Below are positions 1,164 through 39,296 of a stretch of 39,296 nt of DNA, in pieces; the first letter of the stretch is position 1, and each line of letters begins with the position of its first letter. A program made the translations under genes and the position numbers. Location: the IMG/VR virus record IMGVR_UViG_2541047784_000014. The stretch is one strand, 5' to 3'. Source of the DNA: a virus. Lineage: Duplodnaviria; Heunggongvirae; Uroviricota; Caudoviricetes. Below the pieces are notes generated by a model. The model was not told the DNA's origin. It saw only the letters and a list, made by a program, of their open reading frames with translations, and made no database searches.

Positions 1164-1178
1164 TCATTCCCACTCAAT
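1164..1178 (-). other. Displaced guaA 3' end (att core remnant) at the prophage left junction
   Basis: Reverse complement reads ATT GAG TGG GAA TGA = I-E-W-E-stop, the remembered C-terminus of GMP synthase; the reading frame upstream is immediately broken by a stop, so only the terminal codons are present, as expected for the duplicated core of a 3'-end-integrating element. Confidence 0.6.
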
Positions 1179-1288
1179 TATTTACGGATACCATAACCAA
1201 TTGAGTGATAACATTTTTCCAAAGATGAATTTTTCTCGTACCGTTTTATATACCGTCACCGGAAATCAGTACCATGAAAAATGCCATG

Positions 1289-1771
1289 CTATCTGGTCAG
1301 GGTGTCGTACTGTTTTTCGCAGACTCTTCCGGCTTCGGCTGCCCGGTCAGCATACTCTGCCAGTTGTCTATTTCTCTCGAGAGATTTGCTGAACACGTCG
1401 GCAAGCAAAACTCCGGTGTCTGCGGCTGACGACCCAGCGCCGACAATGGCGTTATAGTGCCTGAGCTGCTCACGGATGGCAACGAGCTGTTGCTGCAACC
1501 GGCCAGCGCGAGCGGCAGCATCAAGAGCATCATTGCGCGCCTGGTCGATCCTCTGCTGAGCTTCACGTTCATTGGTCACTTTCTCCTGTTCGTAGTACTG
1601 ACGAACTTTTTCTTCTTCGGCTTTGCAGTCTTCTTTCGCCTGCGCATACCCGGCGTCGTACTGACGGCTACCGTGTACATTCCAGGCAACAACTCCTGAT
1701 ATGACCAGAACAGCAAGCACTGCCACGATAATCAACTGTTTCCAGTATGCTTTTACGAATGCCCAGATCAT
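1289..1771 (-). CDS. Rz-like i-spanin
   Basis: N-terminal transmembrane segment followed by a coiled-coil periplasmic domain; start overlaps the endolysin stop (ATGA at 1768-1771); last gene of the lysis cassette. Confidence 0.7.
1297..1572 (-). CDS. Rz1-like o-spanin lipoprotein, embedded in Rz in another frame
   Basis: ORF entirely inside the Rz gene in a different frame; signal peptide ending in lipobox LAGC followed by a Pro/Ser-rich mature peptide. True start may be an internal Met. Confidence 0.55.
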   Translation of the reverse strand: MNVKLSRGSTRRAMMLLMLPLALAGCSNSSLPSVSSSGTITPLSALGRQPQTPEFCLPTCSANLSREIDNWQSMLTGQPKPEESAKNSTTP

Positions 1772-2397
1772 ACCGCCAGCACCTTACTGGCAGTGACGTA
1801 CCGCGCGCGCCGGTCGTCGATGCCATTCCTGCCACCATTGATAATCAGAGTTACACGTGCAATATCGCCGGTATACTTCATGCAACCTTTGCTGGAGAAG
1901 AACCACGCCGCGCTACGAGCCGCGTATTCGTCCTGCGCCAACAGTTCAGGATTCTCCAGCAGGTCCACTTTCAGGCCGTTTCCGCAATCACGATAGTTAT
2001 TCAAACCGGTAATCTGGATAAGTCCGCGGCCACGGTAATTCCAGCCATCGCCGGGGGCATTGTTCCCCATGCGTTTGCTGTACACCAGATTGGCAATCGC
2101 TCGCTGGCGCTCGAGTGGCAATGGTGGTTCACCAGCATGGCGACCCAGTGCATTAGCCTGCCCCTGAGTGAGACGCCCAGCCCGAACGAAGTTAGCCAGT
2201 CCGCTGACACTGTAGTTGAAATTCTCCTGCAACCTGGTGAAGCCCCCAGACTCATGCCCGACTTGAGCAATAAACATTGCCTGATCTTCTGCTTTGCTGA
2301 TACCAAACTCTTTCATCGCAGAAGTTATATGCGAGAACCAGCGTGCGGCCAGCGCCTCGCTAATACCAGCAGCTCGCTGGAATTGTTTAATCTCCAT
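1768..2397 (-). CDS. Endolysin, glycoside hydrolase family 19 (chitinase-like lysozyme)
   Basis: Start set at the internal ATG (MEIKQ...) preceded by GAGGT; motif [12 protein letters not shown]...ENFNYS typical of GH19 catalytic domains; the longer upstream ORF extension overlaps the holin gene and is rejected. Confidence 0.8.
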
Positions 2398-2695
2398 GTT
2401 TAGACCTCGATATTTTGAAAATCTGAACAACGTTACCGCGTGTTTTAATAACCGCGGCAAGCATGACAGCGTTGATAATGACCTCAGATAAATCCACAGC
2501 CATTGGCGTGCGTAACCAGATTGCATAGACGACACGAACAGGAATACTGGCCGCAGCAACAATAAGGAAATAAGCAAGCCACCCTCCCCATCTTCGATGT
2601 TGAGAGCCGTTACGCCGGAATGTGACAACGCGAATTGCTATGCCAGTACAAATAACTGCATTGGTGATAAGCAAAAAAAACTCATGCGTTACCAT
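2387..2695 (-). CDS. Holin-like membrane protein (3 predicted TM segments)
   Basis: Small hydrophobic protein immediately upstream of the endolysin with overlapping stop/start; typical holin/antiholin position. Confidence 0.55.
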
Positions 2696-3086
2696 CGTCT
2701 TTTCTCCCCGGAATTAAATCGCGTGGATTGTCTGAACGGTGGTAGAGCCATATACCAATACGCACAGCGACAATTGCTGACACGAATGCGCCAGCAGAGA
2801 AAACAATCCCTTTTTCAAAAGAGTCCTGCGTGATGGTAGGGATCAGGCTGGCTATGCCGATAAGAATTGATGCTGCTGGTTTGTAGAAAAGAAGTCCACA
2901 GAGAAAGCTAAGCATCGATAAGAGTACGCGACGATGAATTGGGTACTCTACCGCAGAGGTAACAAAAATTACCGCACCAGCAAGAGCACCGAGCGCCACC
3001 TCTGGCGGAACGCCTACGATAACTGCAGCAAGAGAGCTCACACTAAGCCATTGATTTAAAGAATCAGTAGTTAGATGGGCTGACAT
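2682..3086 (-). CDS. Holin-like membrane protein (about 4 predicted TM segments)
   Basis: Hydrophobic 134-aa product from the first ATG (MSAHL...); first gene of the lysis cassette. Start uncertain: an AAGGAG lies 25 nt upstream and a GTG three codons upstream is possible. Confidence 0.55.
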   Translation of the reverse strand: MSAHLTTDSLNQWLSVSSLAAVIVGVPPEVALGALAGAVIFVTSAVEYPIHRRVLLSMLSFLCGLLFYKPAASILIGIASLIPTITQDSFEKGIVFSAGAFVSAIVAVRIGIWLYHRSDNPRDLIPGRKDDGNA

Positions 3087-3249
3087 AATGAACACCGTTT
3101 ATTACGCATAACAATCTCCTTACTATTGAAGATTCACACATAATAAACCATTTAAGGATAATAGTTACCTCAAAACGCTGTATTTCTACCTTCTACGGCA
3201 ATGAAAATTTCGTTCAGAAAATGGTCTAGTGTACCTCTCAGTCACAATT

Positions 3250-3315: not shown

Positions 3316-6072
3316 TTAGCTACTTTCAAGCATTGCAAGACGTGATTCTATTTTTTCGATTCTTCTACGCAAATAAGCTGACTCAAGCCATAAACACTGG
3401 TCAGTACGGATACCCCACCTATTTCCAGCCTTGCAAACCAGAGTTCGCTCTTCTGTTTCGTATTCTTCTTCCATCTCAATTTCGACGCCATCCACAACTT
3501 TAGTGATCATCCTTACCGCCATCACTGGCGCGTATTTATCATCCCATTCATCGTAACAGAGAAGGCCAAATCTGGTTCCATCAATCCCATGCGCGAGGAA
3601 AGTGTCTCTCACTTGTTGTGCTATAACACCAAAATGCCAGCGGGCACCATCTCCCTTTTCCCTGACGGCATCAAGCCAGCGAAAAGCTACAATCCTGATA
3701 TCTCCCCATGCATCCAGAATTGCATCACCTTCATAACCACGAGACATATACAAGCTGAGCTCACTTGTACTAATCGGTTCACTTTTTTCTCTACCATCTG
3801 ATGTGTTTATCGAACCGTTCGCAGAATAAACCTGTGCCCATCTAAATGATGGTGCACCAAGAGATTTGCTGTTATCAATAATTGGTGAAAAATTACCTTT
3901 AATGGCAATATTTCCAGAGTCGCCGAATATATTAATAACTGCAGAGTCATCACCATGGTTTTTTACGCTTAAGTTTCTTGATGAAATATTTATATCTTTG
4001 TTATATCCACTAACATTAATCCATCTTTTACCATCAATGTGATACCCGTAAATATTTCCGTCTGATTGTTCGTCAGGTGACTCTCTAAGAACAATAGCAT
4101 CTGCTCCAGACGACCATTGTATTTTTGTATCTGTAGGCCTCCAGTTCTTTATAATGAACGAACCATCAGTAAACTCCGTTTTTATTTGTCTATTGTCTAC
4201 AAATGCGTCTCTTGGTTTAAACTCACTTGTGTTAACGCTGCTCTGAAGATCAGAAGCAAAAAATCTAAGATTTCCTGTATAACCCTGAGTCTCGGTCTGG
4301 TTATACGCAATCATAATTCCATTTTCAAACTCAGATGATGTTATTTTAACATCACGGCAATCACCAAAAATGCAATTTCCTTTATCAAATGTTGTTTGAG
4401 CTTTGAATTTATCAAACCTTAAATTACGAACAGGGAAACCATCAACCTCTAATGCAAAGGATGCAGGAAGGCCAAAGTATTCTGATGGCTTACCTGATGT
4501 ATGATCAAGAGTAGTGGCTACTGTATTCTCAAAAACAGTCCCGCTAAAATTATTACCAATTGACGGAAACCTGATTACACTTATTGTACCTTGTATTTCA
4601 GGAGAAATACCAGATAGTGTGATGTTAGCTCCATCAAATGATGCATCTGAATACGTATATACTGATTCACTGCCAGCAATTTTAAACTGTTTAACTGAAG
4701 TTATTCTCATCGACTTTTTATGTTTAAATGTCACTGAGCTTTCAGTATTACTTACAAGATCAATCTGAGGGCTATTCCTTATCGCGATCCCTGACTGGAC
4801 ATAAACGTTATTAAAGTGCGTTTTTTCAGGATTTCCCTTCATTGAAAGGCTCCCGTCATTTTCTGTCAGTAGTAGTCCTTTTACCCTCCAATAGCCGACA
4901 ATCTGTACGTTATCAATAACTGAATCACAGCTATCGTATACATGCAACCCTATATCCCAGTCATCACCCAATGAATAAGAATCAGGGTTATTGTATCCTT
5001 CAATACCATTTTTACTTACCATTATTCTCAGGTTGCGTAACTGTGATGCCCTGTTGATACTAACAGCTACGCTCATGGCTTTTGGTGTAGCAGGAGTAAC
5101 ACCTACAGAATCTTCATTTGTAAACTCAGTGAACTTACAAGATATCCCTTCAACAATTTTAATTGGTCTTTCATTAGAGATGTTAAAAAAATATTTGTTT
5201 TTTTCTCCATCACCAGTAAATACAAGATGGGTTCCTTTACTCCAACTTTTTAATAATCTTTCAGGCGCTGGTCTATATGTATCCCAATAATCAATGCCAT
5301 CACCAATTAAAGACACTCCAGGAGGCACATCTATGTTCTTAGAAATCATCCATTTACCTGCAGGTATTCTAACGACACTTGCACCAGAATTTATCGCATT
5401 AATTAACCATTCAGACGCATCAACTTCAAAATTTAATGCAGCATATCTTTGCTCAAACGGAACAAAATCAAGAGCGTTAACGTTATCCCGCATCTTATCC
5501 TGGAACGTTCGGTATACTGCTCCAGAACCATACTGAATAAACCAACCAAAACCACCAACAACTCCGGCGATTGCAGCATCAACATAATTACGCATTGAGC
5601 GATTATTTACAGCATCCTGCTCAAGTGATGGATCTGCAAGGTTAGAAATTCTGTTTTGCTTTGCATCGTAATATTTTGCAAGCAAAGATGGTTTCATCAA
5701 TGCACGTCTGAACCACCCAAAACATTGCTGGATCAGCATCGTCAGGTAGTCAAAAGCATCTTCATGCACTTCGGGGAAAAATTTTCCCTGATTGCGAAGG
5801 TCTGTCTCCTGCACTACATCAAGCACACGATCTATCGTAATTCGCCATCCAGCAGCAAGCGGCGACGGAAGAACAACAGAACCGCCACTATAAGTGCCCG
5901 CCCCAGTTACCGTATAACCGGTATCCAGAACCAATTCTGTTACGTTCCCGTTCAGGTCAGACACCTGAACAACCAGGTCGGATTTTTTGAAAATACGGAA
6001 GGTATACGGAAATGATGTCGTAGCGCCGTTACCGGTGTATTCGTTGTGGTCAACTTCGGTTGAGACCGTCAT
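3316..6072 (-). CDS. Tailspike / tail fibre with T7 gp17-like N-terminal tail-attachment domain and C-terminal S74-type intramolecular chaperone domain
   Basis: GGAG 9 nt before the ATG; N-terminus (YTGNGATTSFPYTFRIF..DLVV) resembles the T7 tail-fibre N-terminal domain; AT-rich central receptor-binding region; C-terminus carries SDGREK and HFGVIAQQV motifs typical of auto-cleaving chaperone domains. Confidence 0.85.
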   Translation of the reverse strand: MTVSTEVDHNEYTGNGATTSFPYTFRIFKKSDLVVQVSDLNGNVTELVLDTGYTVTGAGTYSGGSVVLPSPLAAGWRITIDRVLDVVQETDLRNQGKFFPEVHEDAFDYLTMLIQQCFGWFRRALMKPSLLAKYYDAKQNRISNLADPSLEQDAVNNRSMRNYVDAAIAGVVGGFGWFIQYGSGAVYRTFQDKMRDNVNALDFVPFEQRYAALNFEVDASEWLINAINSGASVVRIPAGKWMISKNIDVPPGVSLIGDGIDYWDTYRPAPERLLKSWSKGTHLVFTGDGEKNKYFFNISNERPIKIVEGISCKFTEFTNEDSVGVTPATPKAMSVAVSINRASQLRNLRIMVSKNGIEGYNNPDSYSLGDDWDIGLHVYDSCDSVIDNVQIVGYWRVKGLLLTENDGSLSMKGNPEKTHFNNVYVQSGIAIRNSPQIDLVSNTESSVTFKHKKSMRITSVKQFKIAGSESVYTYSDASFDGANITLSGISPEIQGTISVIRFPSIGNNFSGTVFENTVATTLDHTSGKPSEYFGLPASFALEVDGFPVRNLRFDKFKAQTTFDKGNCIFGDCRDVKITSSEFENGIMIAYNQTETQGYTGNLRFFASDLQSSVNTSEFKPRDAFVDNRQIKTEFTDGSFIIKNWRPTDTKIQWSSGADAIVLRESPDEQSDGNIYGYHIDGKRWINVSGYNKDINISSRNLSVKNHGDDSAVINIFGDSGNIAIKGNFSPIIDNSKSLGAPSFRWAQVYSANGSINTSDGREKSEPISTSELSLYMSRGYEGDAILDAWGDIRIVAFRWLDAVREKGDGARWHFGVIAQQVRDTFLAHGIDGTRFGLLCYDEWDDKYAPVMAVRMITKVVDGVEIEMEEEYETEERTLVCKAGNRWGIRTDQCLWLESAYLRRRIEKIESRLAMLESS

Positions 6073-6175
6073 GTTAAATCTCCAGATAGTCGCAGCACCC
6101 GTTGCGCCGCATATCTGGTTATTCTATTACCTGAAAAACCACATATGGATAGATAATCCATAAATACGAAAAGAT

Positions 6176-6192
6176 ATTACCTTTCAGGTAAT
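6176..6192. promoter_or_regulatory. Dyad operator-like site ATTACCTTTCAGGTAAT
   Basis: Perfect 6-bp inverted arms around a 5-bp spacer; member of a motif family found at about twelve intergenic sites; sits between the tailspike start and the LexA-box promoter. Confidence 0.5.
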
Positions 6193-6230
6193 TTGCAAAA
6201 CGTGCTGGATAGCAAACAAATTATTTGCTA

Positions 6231-6246
6231 CTGTATAAATATACAG
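6231..6246. promoter_or_regulatory. LexA (SOS) box CTGTATAAATATACAG
   Basis: CTGT-N8-ACAG with an AT-rich centre, near-identical to the E. coli consensus TACTGTATATATATACAGTA; 22 nt upstream of the ATG at 6268; an internal TATAAAT could be the -10 element. Confidence 0.7.
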
Positions 6247-6267
6247 TTATTGCATGGAGAAGATAAG

Positions 6268-6525
6268 ATGCAGCAGTATCACTATCCACTGGAAGACGGA
6301 TTTACCGAAAGGATTCACACGCCGGGAGGCGTCAGGTCACTGGTGGAGGGATCGCACTTGATGAAATTACTCCGGGATCTCGATAAGGATGGATTTAATG
6401 TCGATGGCCCACTTGCCGAACTGACTGCACTGATTAACTACGTCACCAGCTCACAGATGTCTATGCAGGATCTGCAAACACATCTCGACTATTGTGCCGA
6501 ACAATTACGAAAGCAAACCAGATAA
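6268..6525 (+). CDS. Small antirepressor-like protein, paralog of the C-terminal domain of the adjacent Bro-N antirepressor
   Basis: ATG with GGAG 10 nt upstream; residues TPGGVRSLVEGSHLMKLLRDL...DLQTHLDYCAEQ parallel SPSGVLGLTENSLLMNLLNQL...DIQTHAEYINDK at the end of the 6839-7531 product; directly downstream of the LexA box. Confidence 0.6.
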   Translation: MQQYHYPLEDGFTERIHTPGGVRSLVEGSHLMKLLRDLDKDGFNVDGPLAELTALINYVTSSQMSMQDLQTHLDYCAEQLRKQTR

Positions 6526-6555
6526 GGTTTGCAATTACCAAGTGGAGTGCTTATA

Positions 6556-6572
6556 TTTACCTTTGCGGTAAA
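6556..6572. promoter_or_regulatory. Dyad operator-like site TTTACCTTTGCGGTAAA
   Basis: Same motif family; nested in a longer inverted repeat GGAGTGC...GCACTCC (6544-6587). Confidence 0.45.
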
Positions 6573-6664
6573 TTTACATCGCACTCCTCTTGTGCCATAG
6601 TAATCGGGCACTGGCAAAATCCAGTGCCGGGATTGGTCTCCCGGATTACTACAGAGGCACATAT

Positions 6665-6684
6665 GCCGCATAAGCGGTTTTTTT
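6665..6684 (+). terminator. Putative Rho-independent terminator
   Basis: Short hairpin CCGC-ataa-GCGG followed by seven T; preceded by a stable hairpin GGCACTGG-caaaat-CCAGTGCC (6607-6628). Confidence 0.45.
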
Positions 6685-6838
6685 ATGTGTAAAGCGCACC
6701 TATTCTATGGTGGGCTGTGTGGGGGCACCGAAAGGTGCGCCGGGTTCCTTTGTAGCCGGTAAGACCAACTCTGCACAGTTCACCACCATCTGATTGGTCT
6801 CAGCGGTGGTGATTAACCTAACTACAAAGGTGATCGCC

Positions 6839-7531
6839 ATGAATACCAAACCTTCCATCTTTTCCTTTGAGTCATCCTGCCAGATCCGTATGTTCATGAT
6901 TGACGGAGAACCTTGGTTTGTCACCAAAGATGTGTGCAATGCTTTGAATATTGATGTTACACAAGCGAGAAAACTTGATAAAAAAGGCTGGAACAAAAAG
7001 GGGCTGTATTCAATACAGACCCCTGGTGGAATACAAGAACTATCCATCGTTTCAGAATCAGGTCTCTACATCCTTATTCTGCGTTGCAAAGAGGCTATGA
7101 CAGAGGGAACGAGAGCATTCAGATTTCTTGAATGGGTTACAGGTGAGGTTCTTCCTCAGATCCGCCGCACCGGAAGTTACATTAAAAACTCGCTCCCGCA
7201 GGAAGAACGCATAAAGATGGTTGCCGACCAGGTAGCCAACGCCACGGCGTCAGCAGTAATGCAGGCGATGAAGATAGAGAACAAAACCTACAGTGCCCCG
7301 CTGAAGCCCGGCTACCGCAGCCTGATTCACTCGCCGTCTGGTGTTCTCGGCCTGACGGAGAACTCACTGCTGATGAATCTGCTGAACCAGTTACAGGAAG
7401 ACGGGCACGACGTATCGGGCGCGGCGGCGGAGCTGACCACCATGTTCTGCTACATCGTCGGTGTGAGTAAATGCCTGCGTGATATCCAGACGCACGCGGA
7501 GTACATCAACGACAAGGCTGGGTTCTTCTGA
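6839..7531 (+). CDS. Antirepressor with Bro-N domain
   Basis: Start set at the ATG (MNTKPSIFSF...) with AAGGTG 8 nt upstream; N-terminus has the Bro-N pattern (F.F......R....DGEPWF.A.DV...L); C-terminal domain is paralogous to the 6268-6525 product. Confidence 0.8.
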   Translation: MNTKPSIFSFESSCQIRMFMIDGEPWFVTKDVCNALNIDVTQARKLDKKGWNKKGLYSIQTPGGIQELSIVSESGLYILILRCKEAMTEGTRAFRFLEWVTGEVLPQIRRTGSYIKNSLPQEERIKMVADQVANATASAVMQAMKIENKTYSAPLKPGYRSLIHSPSGVLGLTENSLLMNLLNQLQEDGHDVSGAAAELTTMFCYIVGVSKCLRDIQTHAEYINDKAGFF

Positions 7532-7596
7532 CGGGCGGCGGCACATGGATGTGCCTTTAAAATAATCATTGGCGATGTGATGTAGATTCGCGTAAT

Positions 7597-7613
7597 ATTA
7601 CCTTAAAGGTAAA
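7597..7613. promoter_or_regulatory. Dyad operator-like site ATTACCTTAAAGGTAAA
   Basis: Same motif family; 26 nt upstream of the ATG at 7639, close to its strong ribosome-binding site. Confidence 0.45.
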
Positions 7614-7638
7614 CCATGTGTTTACATGAGGAGGAGAT

Positions 7639-7848
7639 ATGGGATTTTGGTTCGCTCGTACAAAAACGAGGGATAATGCACCCAGCCCTCAGGCAAAAAA
7701 TGCAGAAGTTCCGGCGTCAGCGCAGGTTAACAAGCGTGGTGGAGTATATATCTCATCACAGCAAATTTCTGAGCTTCCTGAGGTTAAGGAGATGCGTCGT
7801 CTCGCTGCTGCAATTGTTAAACAGGATCTTGCCACTGTAAGGAAGTAG
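7639..7848 (+). CDS. Hypothetical small protein (69 aa), first gene of an accessory two-gene operon
   Basis: ATG preceded by GAGGAGGAG; stop TAG overlaps the GTG of the next gene (TAGTG). Confidence 0.6.
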   Translation: MGFWFARTKTRDNAPSPQAKNAEVPASAQVNKRGGVYISSQQISELPEVKEMRRLAAAIVKQDLATVRK

Positions 7849-8714
7849 TGTTGCTAGCTCTTCTAATTATCCCAATCCTGGTTAGCGGTTATATTATGAT
7901 AACCGCTAACCAGTATCATTATTTCCGTTTATACCGACACGAAGGCCAGCTTCTTTATATGAAAGTAGCGGCACTAGGTACATATTGCCTTGTTGCATCA
8001 GTAATAATTGCAGCCGCTATAAAATATAAATGGCCTGATTTTCACCTAGTTCACGATATGGTGGAAACTTTTAATGTAACATCAAAACCAGAAACAGATA
8101 GAATTTACATGTGGCTGCTTCTTCTCTCAGCCACATCCATTTGCTTCTCTTTGTGTTATGTGTCTGTTGTGTGGGTGAAAGATTTTCTTCTTGGTTGTTT
8201 TTATAAACGTGATATTTACGAGCAAAAAACAGAGGCAATGAAGGCCAGAGTACTGCGAAAAACTTACTCGCAAGGTTCTTTAGACTTACTATTGCTTGAT
8301 GCTATTGAATCGGATCCTAAACGACCAATGCTGATTACTTTATCATCAAACAAAGTGTATGTTGGAATAATAAATGGTTCTGGTGAACCAACGGAAAATC
8401 AGGGTCCGCATCAGCACATATCTTTTGTTCCTTTAATGTCAGGATACAGGAACAAAGAAAACTTATCTGTCACATTCACTAATGCTTATCCAGGAGAAAT
8501 ACAGGTCAAGCGGACTGCAGCAATAAGAGGAATTAGCAGAAAGAAAGTGCCAGGACTTGAGATCATGGTGTCTATTGACGAAATAAGTTATATATCATGG
8601 TTTGATTTTGAAGTATATAAAGCAACAAATAACAAAGTAGAATCCAGGGGGCACGTTATTCGTGTTACCAAAAATGGAAGAAATATATATCAAAGAAATA
8701 GCAAAAAAGAATAG
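7848..8714 (+). CDS. Hypothetical inner-membrane protein (about 3 N-terminal TM segments plus a roughly 170-aa soluble domain); candidate superinfection-exclusion or abortive-infection factor
   Basis: Long AT-rich ORF with hydrophobic N-terminus, translationally coupled to the 69-aa gene and followed by a strong terminator. Start uncertain (GTG 7848, TTG 7851 or ATG 7896). Function is inference only. Confidence 0.65.
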   Translation: MLLALLIIPILVSGYIMITANQYHYFRLYRHEGQLLYMKVAALGTYCLVASVIIAAAIKYKWPDFHLVHDMVETFNVTSKPETDRIYMWLLLLSATSICFSLCYVSVVWVKDFLLGCFYKRDIYEQKTEAMKARVLRKTYSQGSLDLLLLDAIESDPKRPMLITLSSNKVYVGIINGSGEPTENQGPHQHISFVPLMSGYRNKENLSVTFTNAYPGEIQVKRTAAIRGISRKKVPGLEIMVSIDEISYISWFDFEVYKATNNKVESRGHVIRVTKNGRNIYQRNSKKE

Positions 8715-8735
8715 CCCGCGCTGCGGGCTTTTTTG
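8713..8735 (+). terminator. Rho-independent terminator
   Basis: Hairpin AGCCCGC-gct-GCGGGCT followed by a T-run, immediately after the stop at 8712-8714. Confidence 0.8.
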
Positions 8736-8772
8736 TGTCTGCGGATTCCCGCCCGGGCGGCGGTGGCATTCG

Positions 8773-8798
8773 TTAAAAACAAGGCCGCGAAAGCGGCC
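8773..8798 (-). terminator. Rho-independent terminator for the minus-strand gene 8813-9262
   Basis: Hairpin GGCCGC-gaaa-GCGGCC (8783-8798) followed on the minus strand by UUGUUUUU. Confidence 0.7.
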
Positions 8799-8799
8799 T

Positions 8800-8811
8800 G
8801 TGACATGTCAC
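8800..8811. repeat. 12-bp perfect palindrome GTGACATGTCAC (copy 1 of 3)
   Basis: Identical 12-mer also at 25802-25813 and 28066-28077, each next to a terminator-type hairpin; here it lies between the stop codon (8813-8815) and the terminator hairpin. Confidence 0.6.
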
Positions 8812-8812
8812 G

Positions 8813-9262: not shown

Positions 9263-9274
9263 AAAGGTCACCTA

Positions 9275-27989: not shown

Positions 27990-27997
27990 AGTACCAT

Positions 27998-28025: not shown

Positions 28026-28065
28026 AGTATTCAAAACCATCAAATTCATCATGCATAATCTACTC

Positions 28066-29038: not shown

Positions 29039-29041
29039 GTG

Positions 29042-29329: not shown

Positions 29330-29330
29330 A

Positions 29331-30484: not shown

Positions 30485-30545
30485 CTTTACCCTCGCTTAT
30501 CCACATAACTTATTGATTACATTGATAACTAAAAAGATCGTCGAT

Positions 30546-31808: not shown

Positions 31809-32629
31809 GCTTCAGGGCTGTTCCAGTGCGGAACGTTGTTATCAGGTAATGTTGATTGCTTCTGTCTGCTAATCTGCAGCCGCCTTGCCAGCTTCTGCTC
31901 CCACTGTGCCTGATGGTATGCCTTACCCTCAGCCATCCAGTAAATTCTGAACTCTGCAAGCTCCTGTGCCGTTGGCAGACTGTCCAGGTAGATCCCCTGC
32001 AATGAGCTTTTCCGAAGAAAGTCATCTGATGGCTGCCATTGTTCATGCATGACAAATTTGCCTAATTGCCCTGGCCCACCAGGAGGAACAAAGTTATTCA
32101 TCACGGCGTTGTTTGCGCCGGGGTCATGAGGCACAGAATCCCCGCTTTTTGTCCTGCTCTCCCTCTCTTGGTTAAATGACTGGTTATATGACTGGTTCTG
32201 GATCCCGTTTTTGGGATCATTCAACATCCCGTTTTTGGGATCATTCAACATCCCGTTTTTGGGATCATTCAACATCCCGTTTTTGGGTATATTCCCGTTT
32301 TCGGTAACATTACCGTTTTCGGGTTCATTACCCCCTTCCCGGTTGCCTTTAATGTTCCCGTTTTTGGTTATATTAAGAGAGAAAACCCGCACTCTTTTCG
32401 TCGCACCCTTTCTCTCTCCGGTATCTGAAATAAGCCCCATTTTCATGAGCGATATAAGCCCGGCCTGCACGGTTTTTTTATTCAGGCAAGTGTCTTTAAC
32501 GAGGCGTTCTATGCTGGGGTAGCAGAGGTTATATTCATCGGCTCTGTCAGCCATCGAGAGCAGTATGAGCTTTAATGACGAGCTACCTGGATCTGTCTCC
32601 CAGGCCCAATCTGTTGCATGTCTGCTCAT
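31790..32629 (-). CDS. Replication initiator O-like protein with embedded origin iterons
   Basis: N-terminal DNA-binding-like domain; central PKNGMLND x3 repeats encoded by three perfect 24-bp tandem iterons; gene order O-P as in lambdoid phages. Confidence 0.75.
   Translation of the reverse strand: MSRHATDWAWETDPGSSSLKLILLSMADRADEYNLCYPSIERLVKDTCLNKKTVQAGLISLMKMGLISDTGERKGATKRVRVFSLNITKNGNIKGNREGGNEPENGNVTENGNIPKNGMLNDPKNGMLNDPKNGMLNDPKNGIQNQSYNQSFNQERESRTKSGDSVPHDPGANNAVMNNFVPPGGPGQLGKFVMHEQWQPSDDFLRKSSLQGIYLDSLPTAQELAEFRIYWMAEGKAYHQAQWEQKLARRLQISRQKQSTLPDNNVPHWNSPEAWEDFL
32202..32273. repeat. Origin-like iterons: three perfect 24-bp tandem repeats ATCCCGTTTTTGGGATCATTCAAC
   Basis: Each unit contains the dyad ATCCC-N6-GGGAT; degenerate copies of CCCGTTTT(T)GG continue to about 32370; located inside the O-like gene as in lambda ori. 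Confidence 0.75.
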
Positions 32630-32845: not shown

Positions 32846-32924
32846 GGTAAGCCCTGTTATTAGTATTGGGATTACGGTCATTTTGTGCTGACACAAAAAA
32901 AAGATCAACCAGATTTGGTTTTTT

Positions 32925-32941
32925 ATTACCTTTGAGGTACG
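32925..32941. promoter_or_regulatory. Dyad operator-like site ATTACCTTTGAGGTACG (imperfect right arm)
   Basis: Same motif family; just downstream of the tR1-like terminator. Confidence 0.4.
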
Positions 32942-32995: not shown

Positions 32996-33226
32996 TCATG
33001 AGTAGAAGAAGTATGCCAGTTCTGCTTTTGAGCGCAGCCATTGTCTTGTTTTACAGGCTTTAAAAAGCCCATTCATCAATACCTTACCTGGCATTTTGCG
33101 CTTACCTGTTAAGTGAGTCTGGATATAGTGACTCGTCGTTCCGGCTTCCTGTGCGAAGGCTTCACGCTCATCCGGAGTAAGTGCAAGCCAGTGCTTTTTG
33201 AAATCGAAATGTCCGTTATCGCTCAT
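32996..33226 (-). CDS. Cro-like HTH regulator
   Basis: 76-aa helix-turn-helix protein transcribed divergently from the repressor-like gene toward the replication genes. Confidence 0.65.
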   Translation of the reverse strand: MSDNGHFDFKKHWLALTPDEREAFAQEAGTTSHYIQTHLTGKRKMPGKVLMNGLFKACKTRQWLRSKAELAYFFYS

Positions 33227-33292
33227 AGCTATTGCCTGATATTTATTTCAGATAATAAATATTCACCCATAAGGTAACAAAAATCAAGGATA

Positions 33293-33309
33293 GTTACCTA
33301 TGAGGTGCA
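33293..33309. promoter_or_regulatory. Dyad operator-like site GTTACCTATGAGGTGCA (imperfect)
   Basis: In the divergent Cro/repressor intergenic region, directly abutting the next site; a GGTAAC half-site lies at 33273-33278. Confidence 0.4.
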
Positions 33310-33326
33310 TTTACCTGTTGGGTAAT
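33310..33326. promoter_or_regulatory. Dyad operator-like site TTTACCTGTTGGGTAAT
   Basis: Near-perfect dyad in the divergent Cro/repressor intergenic region. Confidence 0.5.
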
Positions 33327-33380
33327 ATTGCTTTAAATTGAATCATCTACTGATTCATATATGAGGCGATTTTCCAGAAA

Positions 33381-33965
33381 ATGAAAAGTATCCAGGACGT
33401 CCGCAGGCAAAATCTCAACGACTTGATCGACCGTGAATTCAATGGTGTTCAGACGCGGATGGCAGAAAAACTTGGAACTCAGGCAAATCTGGTAAACCGC
33501 TGGGCTCTTGGCAAGAAGGTTATCGGCGACCAGGTTGCGCGAAAAATTGAAGCTGCCGCCAATAAACCCCGTAACTGGCTTGATATCGATCGCTCGCTTT
33601 CTCAGGAAGGTTTTCAGCCTGTCGGCCCAAGCGACATTGGTCAGCTGGCGGCTCACAACCTGGAACGCTGGATGAGCGAAAGCCGCGACCTTTCAACGCA
33701 GGGAAAACTTCACCGCGCATCCGGCGTCGCCCAGGTGACAATCAGTCGCCTGTTAAACAATGAGGTCAGCGTTTCCATTTCCACCCTGGAGAATGTTGCA
33801 TCCGCATTCGGGCGTCACGGATATGAACTACTGATTCACCCGCACGACCCTGCGACTATCAACTATGACCGCTCGCGCTACGCATTGTTACCCGAAACCG
33901 AGAAAGCAAAGATCGAAAGTTACATTGAATTTGTCATCAACCAGAACGAAAAAAGCAAACAATAA
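33381..33965 (+). CDS. Repressor-like protein with two predicted HTH regions and no recognisable S24 peptidase domain
   Basis: HTH-like segments near residues 25-45 and 115-135; no Ala-Gly/Ser-Lys autocleavage signature seen by eye; cI-like position; followed by a strong terminator. Confidence 0.7.
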   Translation: MKSIQDVRRQNLNDLIDREFNGVQTRMAEKLGTQANLVNRWALGKKVIGDQVARKIEAAANKPRNWLDIDRSLSQEGFQPVGPSDIGQLAAHNLERWMSESRDLSTQGKLHRASGVAQVTISRLLNNEVSVSISTLENVASAFGRHGYELLIHPHDPATINYDRSRYALLPETEKAKIESYIEFVINQNEKSKQ

Positions 33966-34273: not shown

Positions 34274-34573
34274 ATGAACGTTAATCAGCAGAAAAATCTT
34301 CAAAAAATCATGCTGGCATTCGACAAGGACTACCGCCTGTCAGAACAGCTATATGACCGACAAGTTGAACTGATTGAGAGCATCCGACTTCATCAACTGT
34401 CCTCAACTTTCGACGTTGTAACAGGCAAAGGCGTTCGTCAGGAAGTGCTGGAGGCTGCTAAAGACAGCCCTGAGTTCGAAGAACTGATGGATGCCTACCG
34501 GCGCGAGGCAATGGCAATTATAGCGCGCTGGGATCTGGCGGATCAGCTTGATGGGCAGAGGGACGCGGCATGA
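34274..34573 (+). CDS. Hypothetical early protein
   Basis: Start set at the ATG (MNVNQQ...) preceded by GGGAGGG; stop overlaps the exonuclease start. Confidence 0.6.
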   Translation: MNVNQQKNLQKIMLAFDKDYRLSEQLYDRQVELIESIRLHQLSSTFDVVTGKGVRQEVLEAAKDSPEFEELMDAYRREAMAIIARWDLADQLDGQRDAA

Positions 34574-35469
34574 TGCGGAACGCTGGAATCATGGATAGAA
34601 CAAAATACATCGGAGGAAGCGATGTTGCAGGGATTCTTGGAATTAGCCCATGGCGCACCCCGCTTGAGGTTTATCTGGATAAGGTCCAGCCACGTGTCAA
34701 ACCAGTAGACCAAAGCAAGCAGAAAGTTTTCACGCGTGGCCAGCGTATGGAGCCATACGTAATAGACCTGCTTTCTGAGGAAACAGGGATGGAAATCGTT
34801 CATCGCGGAAACCGCTATATCCACCGTGATTACGATTTTATTGCAGCTGAGATCGATGCAGAAGCAGCGTCAGGCGAGAACATTGAGATCAAAACAGTTA
34901 GTCCGTTCAAGGCCAAAGAATGGGGAGAAATCCAGACAGATGCAATTCCTGTGCATTACACGGCCCAGGCCATGCACGGGTTGATGGTTACAAACAAACA
35001 GGTATGCGTTTTCGGTGTGCTTATCGGTGGCGACGACTTCCGAATCTATCGGGTTGAGCGTGATGAAGAAACTATCCAGGCGATCTTAGAAAAAGAAATC
35101 GCTTTCTGGGACCGAGTGAAAAATCTTAACCCGCCGGAAGCTACCAGCGTAAGCGATGTATCGCTGATGTTTGAGAAAGATGCCGGGACAAGTATCGAGG
35201 CTGACGGAAAGGCACTCGCACTATTCAACGATCTACGAGACATGAAATCACGCAGAAAATCACTGGAAGAAGAAATAGCTATATCAGAAGAGAAGCTGAA
35301 GATGTACATGCAAGAGCACTCAGTCCTGACCCTGGACGGAAAGCCGCTCTGCACATGGAAATCTCAGATCAGCAACAGATTCGACCAGAAGCTATTCCAG
35401 TCAGTACACCCTGAGTTATTCGAAAAATTCAAAACAACAACGACACAACGCGTCTTCAGAATGAAGTAA
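34570..35469 (+). CDS. YqaJ-like recombination exonuclease
   Basis: N-terminal IGGSDVAGILGISPWRTPLEVY pattern of YqaJ/lambda-exonuclease-like proteins; immediately upstream of RecT. Confidence 0.8.
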   Translation: MMRNAGIMDRTKYIGGSDVAGILGISPWRTPLEVYLDKVQPRVKPVDQSKQKVFTRGQRMEPYVIDLLSEETGMEIVHRGNRYIHRDYDFIAAEIDAEAASGENIEIKTVSPFKAKEWGEIQTDAIPVHYTAQAMHGLMVTNKQVCVFGVLIGGDDFRIYRVERDEETIQAILEKEIAFWDRVKNLNPPEATSVSDVSLMFEKDAGTSIEADGKALALFNDLRDMKSRRKSLEEEIAISEEKLKMYMQEHSVLTLDGKPLCTWKSQISNRFDQKLFQSVHPELFEKFKTTTTQRVFRMK

Positions 35470-35478
35470 GGAGAAAAA

Positions 35479-36501
35479 ATGTCTATCAATGCACTTAAGG
35501 CAGCGGCTACCGGTAACCAAGTTGCACATCATAATGAGAAACCAACAACTCTGGCCGGACTTCTGGCAGACCCAAAAATTAAAGCTCAGATGGCTTTGGC
35601 ACTTCCAAAGCACATGACAGCAGACCGTCTGGCGCGCATAGCAACCACAGAGATCAGAAAGGTTCCAAAACTTGCATCATGCGACCAAGCCAGCTTCCTG
35701 GGGGCAATTATGCAATGTGCCCAATTGGGTCTTGAACCAGGCGGAGCTCTTGGACACGCTTACCTGATACCGTTCGACAAACGCCAGAAAGTAAATGGAA
35801 GATGGGAAACCGTATCTACAGAAGCACAGCTGATTATCGGCTATCGCGGAATGATTGACCTTGCCCGCCGCTCTGGGCAGATCCTGAGTATCTCGGCTCG
35901 TACCGTACATACAAACGACAAATTCAGCTACTCATACGGCCTGGAAGAAACGCTCGAGCATTTACCTTGCGAAACAGGTGACCGCGGAGAATTAACGCAC
36001 GTTTACGCCGTTGCACGACTGAAAGATGGCGGAGTCCAATTTGAAGTTATGAGCCGGGCAGACGTTGAGAAAGTTCGTGCACTGAGCAAAGCCGGTAGCA
36101 GTGGCCCATGGGTTGATCACTTCGATGAGATGGCTAAAAAAACAGTAATTCGCCGACTGTTCAAATATCTTCCTGTTTCTATTGAAATGCAGAAGGCTGT
36201 TGTTATGGATGAGCGCGCTGAAGCTGGACTTAGCCAAGATAACGCAGCTGTTATCACTGGTGAATATTCCGTAGTTGACGATGAGCGTCAACACCTGTCG
36301 CCAATTTCAGATTCAGAACGAGAAGAAGCTCGAGAATATATCATCGCGATACTTAATAGCCTGGATCCATCTGCTGAAGATGCAAAAACGATGTTCAAGC
36401 GCGCTGAAAATGAAATTAACACCATGGCTGAAAAGCTCGGTGATGAATATCACCAAAAATTCATGATGACGCTTAACGATATGCGTCCAGAATTCGAGTA
36501 A
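35479..36501 (+). CDS. RecT-like single-strand annealing recombinase
   Basis: 340 aa; AAGGAG RBS; paired with the upstream exonuclease as in Rac/lambdoid recombination modules. Confidence 0.75.
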   Translation: MSINALKAAATGNQVAHHNEKPTTLAGLLADPKIKAQMALALPKHMTADRLARIATTEIRKVPKLASCDQASFLGAIMQCAQLGLEPGGALGHAYLIPFDKRQKVNGRWETVSTEAQLIIGYRGMIDLARRSGQILSISARTVHTNDKFSYSYGLEETLEHLPCETGDRGELTHVYAVARLKDGGVQFEVMSRADVEKVRALSKAGSSGPWVDHFDEMAKKTVIRRLFKYLPVSIEMQKAVVMDERAEAGLSQDNAAVITGEYSVVDDERQHLSPISDSEREEAREYIIAILNSLDPSAEDAKTMFKRAENEINTMAEKLGDEYHQKFMMTLNDMRPEFE

Positions 36502-36550: not shown

Positions 36551-36799
36551 ATGAAAGGTGCATTAGGTAAGAAAGAACTCCTGGCGGTGGTGCCACTGTC
36601 ATGGAGCACTATCGACCGTATGGAGCGCGCAGGGGAATTTCCTAAACGCTGGTATATCACCGATAAACGCTGCGCATGGAACCGTGATGAAGTTGAGCGT
36701 TGGCTTGATGAACGTCAGGCAGCAAGCCCGGCAGAGTTCCAGGGTAAAAAGCCTCCTGTTCAGCAACGTGTATATCGTCCCGTGAGCAACGCTGCATGA
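36551..36799 (+). CDS. AlpA-family HTH protein (putative excisionase or regulator)
   Basis: 82 aa; HTH core LSWSTIDRMERAGEFPKRWYITDKRCAWNRDEVERWL typical of AlpA/Xis-like proteins associated with P4-type integrases. Confidence 0.65.
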   Translation: MKGALGKKELLAVVPLSWSTIDRMERAGEFPKRWYITDKRCAWNRDEVERWLDERQAASPAEFQGKKPPVQQRVYRPVSNAA

Positions 36800-36908: not shown

Positions 36909-37208
36909 GTGAGAAAGTTAAGCCGACTTGAAAAATATCACATGAATAAGGTTTCAATGCGCAGTCCGTCAAAGATTGTCGCCGTTACTCCTGCGGCGAT
37001 AGAGATCGAAAAACGCGCGATTGAAAGAGAGAAAAAAGGGCAATTCCGCATTGCCGCTCACCTTTGGCTTCAGTGTATGGATGTTGCTTCTGGTGATGTT
37101 GAACGTGCAAGGATCGCGGTTCGCAGGGACCAATGTATCACAAAAGGTAACGGCCTTCGCCGTGGCGACTATAGCGGCATAGGATGTTGTGGGGTGGTTT
37201 ATGACTAA
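36909..37208 (+). CDS. PerC-like putative transcriptional regulator
   Basis: Pattern KKGQFRIAAHLWLQCMDV...RRDQC resembles PerC-family proteins; start ambiguous (GTG 36909, ATG 36942 or 36957). Confidence 0.45.
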   Translation: MRKLSRLEKYHMNKVSMRSPSKIVAVTPAAIEIEKRAIEREKKGQFRIAAHLWLQCMDVASGDVERARIAVRRDQCITKGNGLRRGDYSGIGCCGVVYD

Positions 37209-37851
37209 GAAATACACACTAATCTATGCAGATCCACCCTGGGTATACCGGGACAAAGCCGCAGATGGTAATCGCGGTGCCGGTTTTAAATATCCGGTTA
37301 TGAGTGTGCTGGATATCTGCCGCCTTCCTGTGTGGGATTTGGCCGATGAAAACTGTCTGTTGGCCATGTGGTGGGTGCCAACACAACCACTCGAAGCACT
37401 AAAAGTTGTTGAAGCCTGGGGATTCCGTCTGATGACGATGAAGGGCTTCACGTGGATAAAATGTGGTAGTCGACAACCAGATAAACTGGTTATGGGTATG
37501 GGACACATGACTCGCGCCAATAGTGAAGATTGCCTGTTTGCGGTAAAGGGAAAACTACCTACGCGCATTAATGCAGGGATCGTTCAGTCATTTACCGCAC
37601 CGCGGCTTGAGCATTCAAGAAAGCCAGATATCGTTCGTGAAAAACTTGTGCAATTATTAGGCGATGTTTCTCGCATTGAACTGTTCGCCCGCCAGACGTC
37701 TCATGGCTTCGATGTTTGGGGTAATCAGTGCGAAGACCCGGCAGTGCAACTACACCCTGGATACGCGTTGGATATTGGCGGATTAACAAATGCATTCAGC
37801 AATGCTCCGCTGTCACCAACAGACATCCAGGGGCGGGAGCGTGCTGCATGA
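37201..37851 (+). CDS. DNA N6-adenine methyltransferase (orphan, phage Dam-like)
   Basis: N-terminal IYADPPW motif (DPPW catalytic signature); no adjacent restriction endonuclease gene seen. Confidence 0.8.
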   Translation: MTKKYTLIYADPPWVYRDKAADGNRGAGFKYPVMSVLDICRLPVWDLADENCLLAMWWVPTQPLEALKVVEAWGFRLMTMKGFTWIKCGSRQPDKLVMGMGHMTRANSEDCLFAVKGKLPTRINAGIVQSFTAPRLEHSRKPDIVREKLVQLLGDVSRIELFARQTSHGFDVWGNQCEDPAVQLHPGYALDIGGLTNAFSNAPLSPTDIQGRERAA

Positions 37852-38042
37852 ACAGGGCATCACCAGCAGATTTAAGAAAATGCCTTGAAACTGCAAACAT
37901 GCTTGCACACAGCGGGATCAGGTTTGTTCCAATTCCCGCTGTCACTGATGCTGAATTTGCAACACTGTCAGCAATATTCGAAAACAAAATTGAATCACTG
38001 GCAGCAGAAGCAGAGATGGAAGAAAATCAGCAGAACTATTAA
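37848..38042 (+). CDS. Hypothetical small protein (64 aa)
   Basis: ATG overlapping the methyltransferase stop (ATGA); stop lies 3 bp from the convergent integrase stop. Confidence 0.45.
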   Translation: MNRASPADLRKCLETANMLAHSGIRFVPIPAVTDAEFATLSAIFENKIESLAAEAEMEENQQNY

Positions 38043-38045
38043 ACG

Positions 38046-39296
38046 TTATTCCCCCGCCATCCACTTCTCAAACTTCGACGGGGAGAACGGAATCAGATCC
38101 GTATGCTCCCCGTCAATCCATGAATCAATCATATCGGCCCACTGCTGCAACATGTAGGCGCGCTGTCTGGCGTATTCCGCTTTGTTATATACGGCGCGCA
38201 CACCTTTCTGCTCATGTGCCAGAGCCTTTTCAATCCAGTCTGAAGGATAACCAGCCTCATGCAACAACGTACTGGCTGTACGGCGCATATCATGTACAGT
38301 GAAGTCCTGAATATGCTCACCATCTTCATTTATTATTTTCACCGTTCTGTCGATCAGAGAGTTCAGCGCGGCATTAGATAATGGCTTCCGGATATTGTAA
38401 CGACCAGGAACCAGATATTCACTTCCACCAGCGCACATCTGCAACCCGACCAATATATCCTGTGCCTGTTTAGGCAGGTAAATAACGTGCGCCCGGCTTC
38501 CCTTCATGCGGTCTGGAGGAATTGTCCATGTCCATTTTTTAAAATCTATTTCATCCCACGTTGCATTGGTGAATTCGCCCTTACGAACCATAGTGATAAG
38601 CACCAGTTTTAAAGCCATTTTCATAGTGCCCATAGCACCAATGGCATCCAGCGTGCGGAAGAACAGGCCAATTTCTTCTGGTGTCAGTGTTCGCTCTCGT
38701 GGTTTAAATATGGCGATAGACGAAGGTTTAATGTCAGCCGCAGGATTAAACAAACCATGACCACGGTCATTGGCGTGACGGTATACGCTACTGATGATCT
38801 CCCTGGCCTGCACTGCTGTTGCCCGGCCACCGCGTTCGACAATCCGGTCACACAAATCACGAACCATCGATGTGGTAATTTCAGCCATCATTTTATTGCC
38901 AAGAACCGGAAGTATGTCACGGTCGATCACCGCCTGTTTCATTGCGCGGGTACTGTCAGCCAGGATGACGTGTTTCATATAACTGTCGGTATGTACCGCA
39001 AACGTCTCGGCACCACGAATCTTTTTGATACCGTCACGTTTAGCCGCAGCCGGTGACTGGCCTGCTTTAAGCAGCTTCTTTGCAGCAATCAGTTCTTCTC
39101 GCGCTTCTGCCAGGCTGATACCGTCACGCCCATACTGCCCGATTACCAGTGTTTCGCGGCGACCGTTGATACGGTAGTCATAGCGAAACGAGACCGTGCC
39201 TGACGTAAGCACAGCTACATACAGCCCGTCACGATCGGAAACCTTGTACAGTTTGTCCTGCGGCTTGAGGTTTTTTAATTTTGTATCGGTAAGCAC
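38046..39296 (-). CDS. Tyrosine integrase, P4-type (N-terminus truncated by the window edge)
   Basis: N-terminal LTDTKLKNLKP..YKVSDRDGLYVAV...FRYDYRINGRR pattern of P4-like integrases and a C-terminal catalytic region (R...HDMRRT...H..Y); the ORF is open at position 39296. Confidence 0.85.
   Translation of the reverse strand: MLTDTKLKNLKPQDKLYKVSDRDGLYVAVLTSGTVSFRYDYRINGRRETLVIGQYGRDGISLAEAREELIAAKKLLKAGQSPAAAKRDGIKKIRGAETFAVHTDSYMKHVILADSTRAMKQAVIDRDILPVLGNKMMAEITTSMVRDLCDRIVERGGRATAVQAREIISSVYRHANDRGHGLFNPAADIKPSSIAIFKPRERTLTPEEIGLFFRTLDAIGAMGTMKMALKLVLITMVRKGEFTNATWDEIDFKKWTWTIPPDRMKGSRAHVIYLPKQAQDILVGLQMCAGGSEYLVPGRYNIRKPLSNAALNSLIDRTVKIINEDGEHIQDFTVHDMRRTASTLLHEAGYPSDWIEKALAHEQKGVRAVYNKAEYARQRAYMLQQWADMIDSWIDGEHTDLIPFSPSKFEKWMAGE

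Follow-up and report, generated by a model that had tools for sequence, protein, structure and literature searches.

A probable Uetakevirus prophage at the 3' end of guaA, with T7-related portal, tail and ejection genes and a lambda-like early region

The window analysed here is a 39,296-nucleotide (nt) stretch of DNA, IMG/VR virus record IMGVR_UViG_2541047784_000014, which opens with the host genes yfgH (1-516) and yfgI (532-1071) and carries prophage genes from 1163 to its end. Judging from its gene content, gene order and junction, the region 1163-39296 is very probably a complete-looking prophage, inserted at the 3' end of guaA, of a temperate podovirus belonging to the genus Uetakevirus, the phiV10/epsilon15 group. 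An earlier first-pass annotation of the same DNA had described a temperate podovirus prophage, a reading that stands, and had missed its membership in this named group. The prophage-host boundary is marked by the following feature.

1163-1179, no strand assigned: prophage-host junction, a 17-bp attachment (att) core

The core, which adjoins yfgI, reads AATCATTCCCACTCAAT; its reverse complement, ATTGAGTGGGAATGATT, is found at the 3' end of guaA. Because it sits at 1163-1179, position 1164, at which the first-pass annotation had begun the element, is the true prophage end. Integration at the guaA 3' end through this core is a Uetakevirus trait: the attP core of phiV10, epsilon15 and vB_EcoP_ZX5 is the same 17-mer, and all three phages integrate at the guaA 3' end (PMC9782041). 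In the Escherichia coli genome NZ_OZ040490, which carries a prophage at the same site, one copy of ATTGAGTGGGAATGATT ends guaA and a second lies beside yfgI at the opposite prophage end. Since the window ends right at the start codon of the integrase (39296), the second att copy of its prophage falls outside.

A terminator hairpin (AACCCTCTGT..ACAGAGGGTTTTT) flanks the prophage on both sides, at 1113-1139 in the window and at 4480-4506 in sequence L002; the native copy stands beside yfgI, and a phage-borne one follows the rebuilt guaA end. Since the hairpin occurs on both sides, the prophage seems to give guaA a substitute 3' end and terminator.

Megablast of the virion region returned Uetakevirus phages, among which EC.W1-9 covers 97% of that region, and phiV10, TL-2011b, ZX5, PAS61 and phiv142-3 align from about 15950 onward at 98%. 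About 20 prophage proteins are 95-100% identical to those of phiV10 (NC_007804): in packaging and head, both terminase subunits, portal, Bbp19-like protein, a 233-amino-acid (aa) protein, capsid, cement, gp9-like protein and staple; in tail and ejection, the adaptor, nozzle, gp13-like and gp14-like proteins; and in the early region, integrase, repressor, Cro-like protein, initiator and P-like loader. The core proteins from terminase through repressor keep the conserved order of the genus, which is that of phiV10.

At the DNA level, phiV10 covers 61% of the prophage by megablast, with 90-98% identity. The isolated phage EC.W1-9 (PP445227), whose record has no genus assignment, covers 78% at 97.2% identity, or about 75% overall, and for the prophage of NZ_OZ040490 the figures are 97% and 99.2%. 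The ICTV guideline for a genus is about 70% nucleotide identity over the full length; the phiV10 match falls short of it. Both placed in Uetakevirus, phiV10 and epsilon15 are less alike than the prophage is to EC.W1-9 (PMC9782041).

The element shares with phiV10 its gene order throughout, the attP core, the guaA target and an antisense gp19-like/Bro-N unit located after the internal-protein genes and before the tailspike, but differs in the tailspike beyond aa 166 and in the exonuclease/RecT pair, adds 2.1 kb of cargo and lacks the O-acetyltransferase gene oac that follows the spike in phiV10. It has the same two-gene ejectosome variant as EC.W1-9, with another tailspike body and other cargo and recombination genes, and differs from the NZ_OZ040490 prophage at 28852-29934 and around the tRNA gene. 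With the wider epsilon15/BPP-1/Carin-1 structural group it has in common the gp7-type capsid, gp10 staple, Bbp16 cement and Bbp19-like protein, but not the hosts, tailspikes or early regions. The solved Carin-1 structures 8ck0 and 8ck1, the latter identified through its fold-search description, match the window's portal, connector, nozzle and tailspike anchor, at amino-acid identities of about 50% or less. The portal-to-nozzle block (at least 80% coverage) was found in 504 of 5426 complete E. coli genomes, about 9%.

The packaging and virion genes lie on the minus strand, with the terminase genes upstream of the portal and a 3.64-kb gap between the last ejection-protein gene and the tailspike. 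In gene order, they are:

27360-28052, minus: terminase small subunit, not T7-like
25888-27363, minus: terminase large subunit, not T7-like (phrog_2/PF03592 assignments for the pair; 99% identical to phiV10 p01/p02)
23168-24847, minus: portal, T7 gp8 family (PF12236, 1.6e-187; Carin-1 portal 8ck0_A, 5.7e-179; cyanophage P-SCSP1u portal, 1.9e-5)
22875-23171, minus: 98-aa Bbp19-like protein (PF25181, 2.8e-17)
22177-22878, minus: 233-aa head-assembly protein, probable scaffold, 'peptidase/protease' in databases (phrog_458 'protease')
21176-22168, minus: major capsid protein, epsilon15 gp7 family (PF20911, 2e-149)
20687-21124, minus: Bbp16-type cement (Pfam profile match)
20341-20685, minus: 114-aa epsilon15 gp9-like protein
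19967-20296, minus: gp10-type staple (Pfam profile match)
19362-19967, minus: 201-aa portal-tail adaptor, T7 gp11-like (tubular tail protein A)
16891-19362, minus: 823-aa tail nozzle, T7 gp12-like (tubular tail protein B; Carin-1 'Tail Nozzle' 8ck1_A, 4.5e-234)
16427-16891, minus: 154-aa internal virion protein, T7 gp13-like (phrog_308, 9e-63)
15852-16427, minus: 191-aa internal virion protein, T7 gp14 family (PF24072, 4.4e-8, 33.7 bits, cut-off 27)
13105-15852, minus: 915-aa internal virion protein at the gp15 position (phrog_1044, phrog_992, phrog_7182)
9716-13105, minus: 1129-aa internal virion (ejection) protein, T7 gp16-like body (phrog_342, the PHROG of T7 gp16, 2.7e-235)
3316-6072, minus: 918-aa tailspike (phrog_1171, 6e-300; Peptidase_S74, 3e-10)

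This order had been said to follow T7 gp8-gp17 from portal to tailspike, and it is indeed colinear with T7, with four extra small head genes that have no T7 counterpart: those for the Bbp19-like protein, the Bbp16 cement, the epsilon15 gp9-like protein and the gp10 staple. The last three are 96-100% identical to phiV10 p11-p13, and the staple and cement Pfam matches fall within 19967-21124 (PF21628, 1e-51; PF21190, 6.5e-47). The head itself departs from T7. The window capsid belongs to PF20911 and T7 gp10A to PF21703; neither the T7-type capsid (gp10) nor the T7-type scaffold (gp9) of Autographiviridae was found here. The capsid and terminase of epsilon15 have been grouped with siphovirus types (Hardies et al. 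2016, PMC4819975).

The 233-aa protein may be a scaffold rather than a protease, a choice that only its composition favours: the N-terminal 90 residues are acidic, rich in Pro and Ala and of low complexity, and the remaining C-terminal part is short. A homologue search recovered only relatives at least 80% identical, named 'peptidase' and devoid of any such domain, and the 'peptidase'/'protease' label looks inherited, without domain support.

We compared 17 window virion proteins with 16 T7 proteins using BLASTP and phmmer. Pairwise comparison being uninformative at the distance of T7, we turned to family profiles, in which T7 proteins were run as positive controls, to one predicted structure and to profile searches of solved structures. 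For gp8, the T7 portal falls in the same PF12236 family (2.8e-113), and PHROG cross-matches occur both ways. An AlphaFold2 model of the adaptor, with a predicted local distance difference test (pLDDT) score of 85, matched the Carin-1 connector (2.9e-16) and T7 gp11 (7box_M; 2.6e-6, template modelling score 0.56) in Foldseek, as well as LME-1, PhiM1 and the KP32 tail tubular protein A. With a diverse alignment, the nozzle profile matched a nozzle gp13 chain (23sh_T, 8.5e-7) and the Kp7 tail tubular protein B (2.9e-4); such an alignment was needed, as hhalign with shallow ones (effective sequence number, Neff, 1.3-2.1) gave no signal against T7 gp11 or gp12.

Among the internal proteins, T7 gp13 belongs to the same PHROG as the 154-aa protein (1e-42). 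For gp14 we relied on the above-threshold PF24072 match, because shallow hhalign of the 191-aa protein gave no signal; T7 gp14 is in PF24072 too, and the Prokaryotic Genome Annotation Pipeline (PGAP) name is 'virion core protein, T7 gp14 family'. The spike anchor (aa 1-166) and the N-terminus of T7 gp17 have phrog_1640 and phrog_27277 in common, over the same profile region. Taken by protein, these matches support relatedness to T7 for gp8, gp11, gp12, gp13, gp14, gp16 and the N-terminal anchor of gp17, with a strength that ranges from strong for gp8 to weak.

The T7-type portal, adaptor, nozzle and internal core of Autographiviridae are thus represented by likely homologues of gp8, gp11-gp14 and gp16 in T7 order, gp15 being undetectable. 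Hardies et al. (2016, PMC4819975) reported epsilon15 gp11 and gp12 as homologues of T7 tubular tail proteins A and B, and gp13, gp14 and gp17 as homologues of T7 internal virion proteins A, B and D; internal virion protein C homology was undetected for epsilon15. Of the T7-type virion module described in the first-pass annotation, the portal, tail and ejectosome hold up, while capsid and terminase are of other families and the gp9 and gp15 positions show no detectable link. The gp11-, gp12-, gp14- and gp17-like N-terminal similarities and the T7-like portal it had listed are undetectable pairwise against T7 but were recovered by profile and structure methods.

The tailspike comprises the conserved anchor, a variable receptor-binding body and a C-terminal intramolecular chaperone of endosialidase type (aa 758-829). 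Its N-terminus is 68% identical to phiV10 p25 and matches that of Carin-1 Dpo31 (8.7e-32), and the protein matches 3gw6 at 4.8e-34. Window and T7 differ in carrying tailspikes and fibres, respectively, as they do in capsid and terminase families and in the temperate nature of the window phage.

In the 915-aa protein, which shares 44% identity with phiV10 p18 over the N-terminal half of the latter, aa 247-399 form a lysozyme/endolysin-like domain (9vvp_L Gp29, 5e-35; 7q47 endolysin, 4e-15). The 1129-aa protein lacks the N-terminal transglycosylase domain, since its match spans positions 192-1227 of the phrog_342 profile. The muralytic domain, at the N-terminus of gp16 in T7, is carried in the window by the middle of the protein at the gp15 position. 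A gene for a tape measure, tube or sheath, the result that had been named as refuting a T7-type virion, was not found; the match of one 'tape measure' PHROG was confined to the muralytic part of the 915-aa protein.

In phiV10, three large internal-protein genes (837, 600 and 824 aa) follow gp14, against two in EC.W1-9 and in the window, where they encode 915 and 1129 aa, and the last ejectosome protein belongs to phrog_684 in phiV10 (p20, 824 aa) and to phrog_342 in the window. Among 80 related IMG/VR loci, about 10 have the window-type ejectosome and about 40-56 the phiV10 type, making the window type a minority; the scan, made with the diverse nozzle alignment, recovered only relatives at least 70% identical and was used to survey variants, not to build deep profiles. 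All this has the appearance of an exchanged cassette within a virion module that is nearly identical otherwise. We hold it possible, though on balance doubtful, that the ejectosome cassette was swapped within a near-uniform phiV10-type module and that the adjacent cargo at 7848-9715 could provide an undescribed superinfection-exclusion or defence function. If the horizontal exchange is real, sets of ejection proteins would be interchangeable modules compatible with the same nozzle and gp14-like protein.

The early region, which encodes immunity, replication, recombination and integration, contains the following.

38046-39296, minus: P4-type tyrosine integrase (Arm-DNA-bind_3, Phage_int_M, Phage_integrase; 98.6% identical to phiV10 integrase)
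36551-36799, plus: AlpA-like protein, probable excisionase
35479-36501, plus: RecT (PF03837, 4e-57)
34570-35469, plus: YqaJ exonuclease (PF09588, 1e-23)
33381-33965, plus: 194-aa repressor with two helix-turn-helix (HTH) regions
33261-33278, 33293-33310 and 33312-33327: operators, inverted repeats TTACC-N6-GGTAA, between the repressor and Cro-like genes
32996-33226, minus: 76-aa Cro-like protein (phrog_35), divergent from the repressor
32924-32939: fourth operator, an inverted repeat
31790-32629, minus: initiator with an HTH_36/O-like N-terminal half and a DnaT C-terminal domain
31008-31808, minus: lambda P family loader (PF06992, 1.5e-56)

The Cro-like/repressor-like divergent pair with operators, the O-like initiator with iterons, the P-like loader, the YqaJ exonuclease with RecT and the tyrosine integrase had all been predicted, and all are confirmed by the features and domain matches above. 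Repressor and Cro-like protein are 99.5-100% identical to phiV10 p40/p41, the repressor at 99.5%. A domain search found no S24 (LexA-like) self-cleavage domain in the repressor, which argues against RecA-mediated cleavage as the mechanism of induction. The divergent pair and the operators of a lambdoid switch are thus present, and the CI-type repressor with its S24 domain is not. No N- or Q-type antiterminator family matched among the open reading frames (ORFs) searched; a divergent analogue is possible. Lambdoid regulation, as had been proposed, holds for the divergent pair and operators, and is qualified by the missing S24 domain, the undetected N/Q and the presence of an antirepressor module.

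Replication follows the lambdoid scheme of an O-type initiator with an internal iteron origin and a P-type loader, the initiator being DnaT-like at its C-terminus. Four copies of ATCCCGTTTTTGGGATCATTCAAC at 24-bp spacing occupy 32178-32294 inside the initiator gene, with three degenerate copies up to 32375. Further matches of the replication module are to PF17948, PF13730, phrog_1032, phrog_391 and phrog_678, and the initiator N-terminus falls in O-like PHROGs. Lambda and the window share the divergent repressor/Cro pair with operators, the iteron origin in the initiator gene, a P family loader, an exonuclease-annealase pair and a tyrosine integrase; they differ in the repressor, in the C-terminus of the initiator, which is unlike lambda O, in the detection of N and Q, in the P4 type of the window integrase and in having YqaJ/RecT versus Exo/Beta. 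BLASTP of the YqaJ/RecT pair against the phiV10 RecE-RecT fusion gave no match, so that this module has been exchanged within the group.

Between the 1129-aa gene and the tailspike, at 6073-9715, lies what had been called a 3.6-kb accessory island. The separation is real, but the left 1.5 kb is a family-conserved antisense unit, present in phiV10 as p24 and p23, and only about 2.1 kb is cargo. The unit consists of:

6268-6525, plus: 85-aa protein, epsilon15 gp19/phiV10 p24 homologue (97.6% identical to phiV10 p24; phrog_450, 9e-48)
6608-6684, plus: isrK-like small RNA (Rfam RF01394, 74.7 bits, gathering score 50)
6703-6790, plus: C4 antisense RNA (Rfam RF01695, 78.6 bits, gathering score 45)
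6839-7531, plus: Bro-N antirepressor, Ant (PF02498, 2e-13; phrog_130 'anti-repressor Ant', 3.5e-51; 75% identical to phiV10 p23)

The 85-aa protein is related to the C-terminal domain of the antirepressor. The isrK (Hfq-binding) and C4 RNAs stand back to back directly upstream of the Bro-N gene, and they are unannotated in the phage and RefSeq records examined (phiV10, EC.W1-9 and NZ_OZ040490). The layout of this RNA-antirepressor unit resembles that of the P1 immI locus (c4-icd-ant). It is also that of the Gifsy-1 isrK-orf45-anrP locus, in which IsrK controls antirepressor translation (PMC4825925). Unlike both, the window module lies among the late genes, with the ejectosome genes on one side and the tailspike on the other. 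In ZX5, whose repressor is reported to be identical to that of phiV10, overexpression of the repressor blocked lytic gene transcription and overexpression of the Bro-N protein caused a shift toward lysis (PMC9782041).

In the life cycle that these genes suggest, the P4-type tyrosine integrase would use the 17-bp core ATTGAGTGGGAATGATT to insert the phage at the 3' end of guaA, and lysogeny would be maintained by the two-HTH repressor bound to the inverted-repeat operators between its gene and that of the Cro-like protein. Escape from repression may proceed via the Bro-N antirepressor, sited downstream of the isrK-like and C4-like RNAs; we rate antirepressor-driven induction as the likeliest route, since the repressor lacks a cleavage domain, the isrK/C4/Ant module is present, and the ZX5 overexpression data agree. 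Replication would start at the iterons within the initiator gene, with the lambda P-type protein loading the host DnaB helicase, and host RNA polymerase would transcribe all genes. The head is predicted to be an epsilon15-type HK97-fold shell with staple and cement, filled by the non-T7 terminase through a T7-type portal, and the tail to combine an adaptor ring of gp11 type and a nozzle of gp12 type with tailspikes attached by the conserved N-terminal anchor. At infection, the gp14-like, 915-aa and 1129-aa proteins, packaged in the head, would be ejected to form an envelope-spanning channel, while the lysozyme-like domain of the 915-aa protein would open the peptidoglycan.

Several results weigh against parts of this picture. 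BLASTP and phmmer against T7 returned nothing significant, the best E-value (0.002, portal versus gp16) being spurious, and every T7 link therefore draws on profiles, PHROG co-membership or one predicted structure. By hhalign, nozzle residues 322-439 aligned with T7 gp12 351-466 at a modest E-value of 6e-5 and 65% probability; for epsilon15 gp12, Hardies et al. (2016, PMC4819975) had reported significance in the same region of T7 gp12. AlphaFold2 on a shallow nozzle alignment gave an unusable model (pLDDT 37). The 154-aa protein reached the same modest values against T7 gp13 (E 6e-5, 65% probability), and the 1129-aa protein was weak against gp16 (E 1.2e-3, 20% probability). The 915-aa protein showed no link to T7 gp15 either pairwise or by hhalign (E 0.2), and none to gp16 by hhalign. 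Searches of Pfam, NCBIfam and the PDB found no match for the 233-aa protein, which matched neither PF05396 nor phrog_1052 and shows no link to T7 gp9. Induction through Ant and the two RNAs is drawn from homologous systems and goes beyond the overexpression data. The second att copy lies about 190 bp past the window end, and as to inducibility and particle formation this copy is known from its genes alone.

The last two points lend themselves to another reading, in which the element is a defective, cryptic Uetakevirus remnant that has kept its genes and lost excision or infectious particles: the window does not include the second att site, the prophage is known from sequence alone, and phiV10 is unlike it in the ejectosome genes, in the exonuclease/RecT pair and across 28412-30060, so that incompatibilities are possible. 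We regard such a remnant as improbable. The structural, lysis, replication and integration ORFs are all of full length and match their counterparts in plaque-forming phages at 95-100% identity, the variant ejectosome pair also occurs in the isolated phage EC.W1-9, and the near-identical NZ_OZ040490 prophage has both att copies.

The homology of the portal, adaptor, nozzle, gp13-, gp14- and gp16-like proteins and spike anchor to those of T7, in the same order, would also suit a true T7-family member (Autographiviridae) turned temperate, like LUZ100-type phages. This origin deserves very little credence, as it is already refuted on the defining feature of the family: the element has no single-subunit RNA polymerase. 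As the first-pass annotation had noted, such a gene is absent; tblastn with T7 gp1 over the element gave no match, all large ORFs have been assigned, and no gap of more than 426 nt is left over. Moreover, tblastn with 16 T7 proteins (RNA polymerase, gp6.7-gp19) gave no match at E <= 0.01, capsid and scaffold are of other families, the terminase is non-T7 and upstream of the portal, and pairwise T7 identity is undetectable. The replication genes found are a lambda-type initiator and a P loader; T7 DNA polymerase and primase-helicase were not searched by similarity. A P22-like (Lederbergvirus) prophage, which the tailspike with its conserved N-terminal anchor, the ejection proteins, the antirepressor region under presumed small-RNA control and the lambdoid replication genes might bring to mind, is already refuted by the family assignments (portal PF12236, capsid PF20911; no match to the P22 coat, portal, gp4, gp10 or gp26 families), by the best DNA matches, all Uetakevirus, and by an att site that is that of phiV10 and epsilon15.

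As a copy of a well-known E. coli phage type, the element is ordinary and apparently intact, a complete-looking Uetakevirus prophage whose chimeric nature is already published, including the T7 tail and internal-protein homology in 2016 (Hardies et al., PMC4819975). Phages of this group have been sequenced since 2007-2009; the group has a genus name and cryo-electron microscopy structures, and its att site, repressor and antirepressor have been tested experimentally. The useful outcome lies in annotation corrections, namely the 'peptidase' label without domain support and the unannotated isrK and C4 RNAs; the adaptor, nozzle and internal proteins, mostly 'hypothetical' in RefSeq, can now be named. 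The variable parts worth watching are the ejectosome genes and the adjacent cargo slot.

The cargo occupies the right part of the island (7560-9715), is strain-specific and has a G+C content of about 0.39-0.40.

7848-8714, plus: 288-aa membrane protein
8713-8729, bidirectional, and 8799-8782, minus: terminators
8813-9271, minus: 152-aa protein
9275-9715, plus: 146-aa protein with a signal-peptide-like N-terminus

The three cargo ORFs matched function-less PHROGs only and gave no Pfam, NCBIfam or PADLOC match. The complete cargo was present in two of the 5426 complete E. coli genomes. The 288-aa gene by itself recurs at the same site in prophages of swine enterotoxigenic E. coli.

The remaining genes are small early or middle ones, several of them on the minus strand within 28074-30890, together with two genes beside the integrase, a tRNA gene between the portal-side and terminase genes, and the lysis cassette.

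37189-37851, plus: MT-A70 methyltransferase
36909-37208, plus: PerC-like protein
30546-30890, minus: DUF1064 resolvase-like protein
29331-29954, minus: Ead/Ea22-like protein
28074-28415, minus: phrog_536 'transcriptional regulator', upstream of the terminase
25495-25571, plus: tRNA-Arg (TCT)
2682-3095, minus: membrane protein/holin
2387-2695, minus: holin
1768-2397, minus: GH19 endolysin
1289-1771, minus: Rz-like spanin (DUF2514)

PADLOC and NCBIfam searches of the early genes of unknown function gave no matches. In the stretch 25069-25887, which holds the tRNA-Arg (TCT) gene, about 330 bp are unlike the NZ_OZ040490 prophage, elsewhere 99% identical, which has a 'Gp49 family' gene there. The lysis assignments follow the PGAP annotation of NZ_OZ040490, which is 99.5% identical, and the cassette (1289-3095) keeps the order of phiV10 p27-p30 at about 90% nucleotide identity to phiV10.

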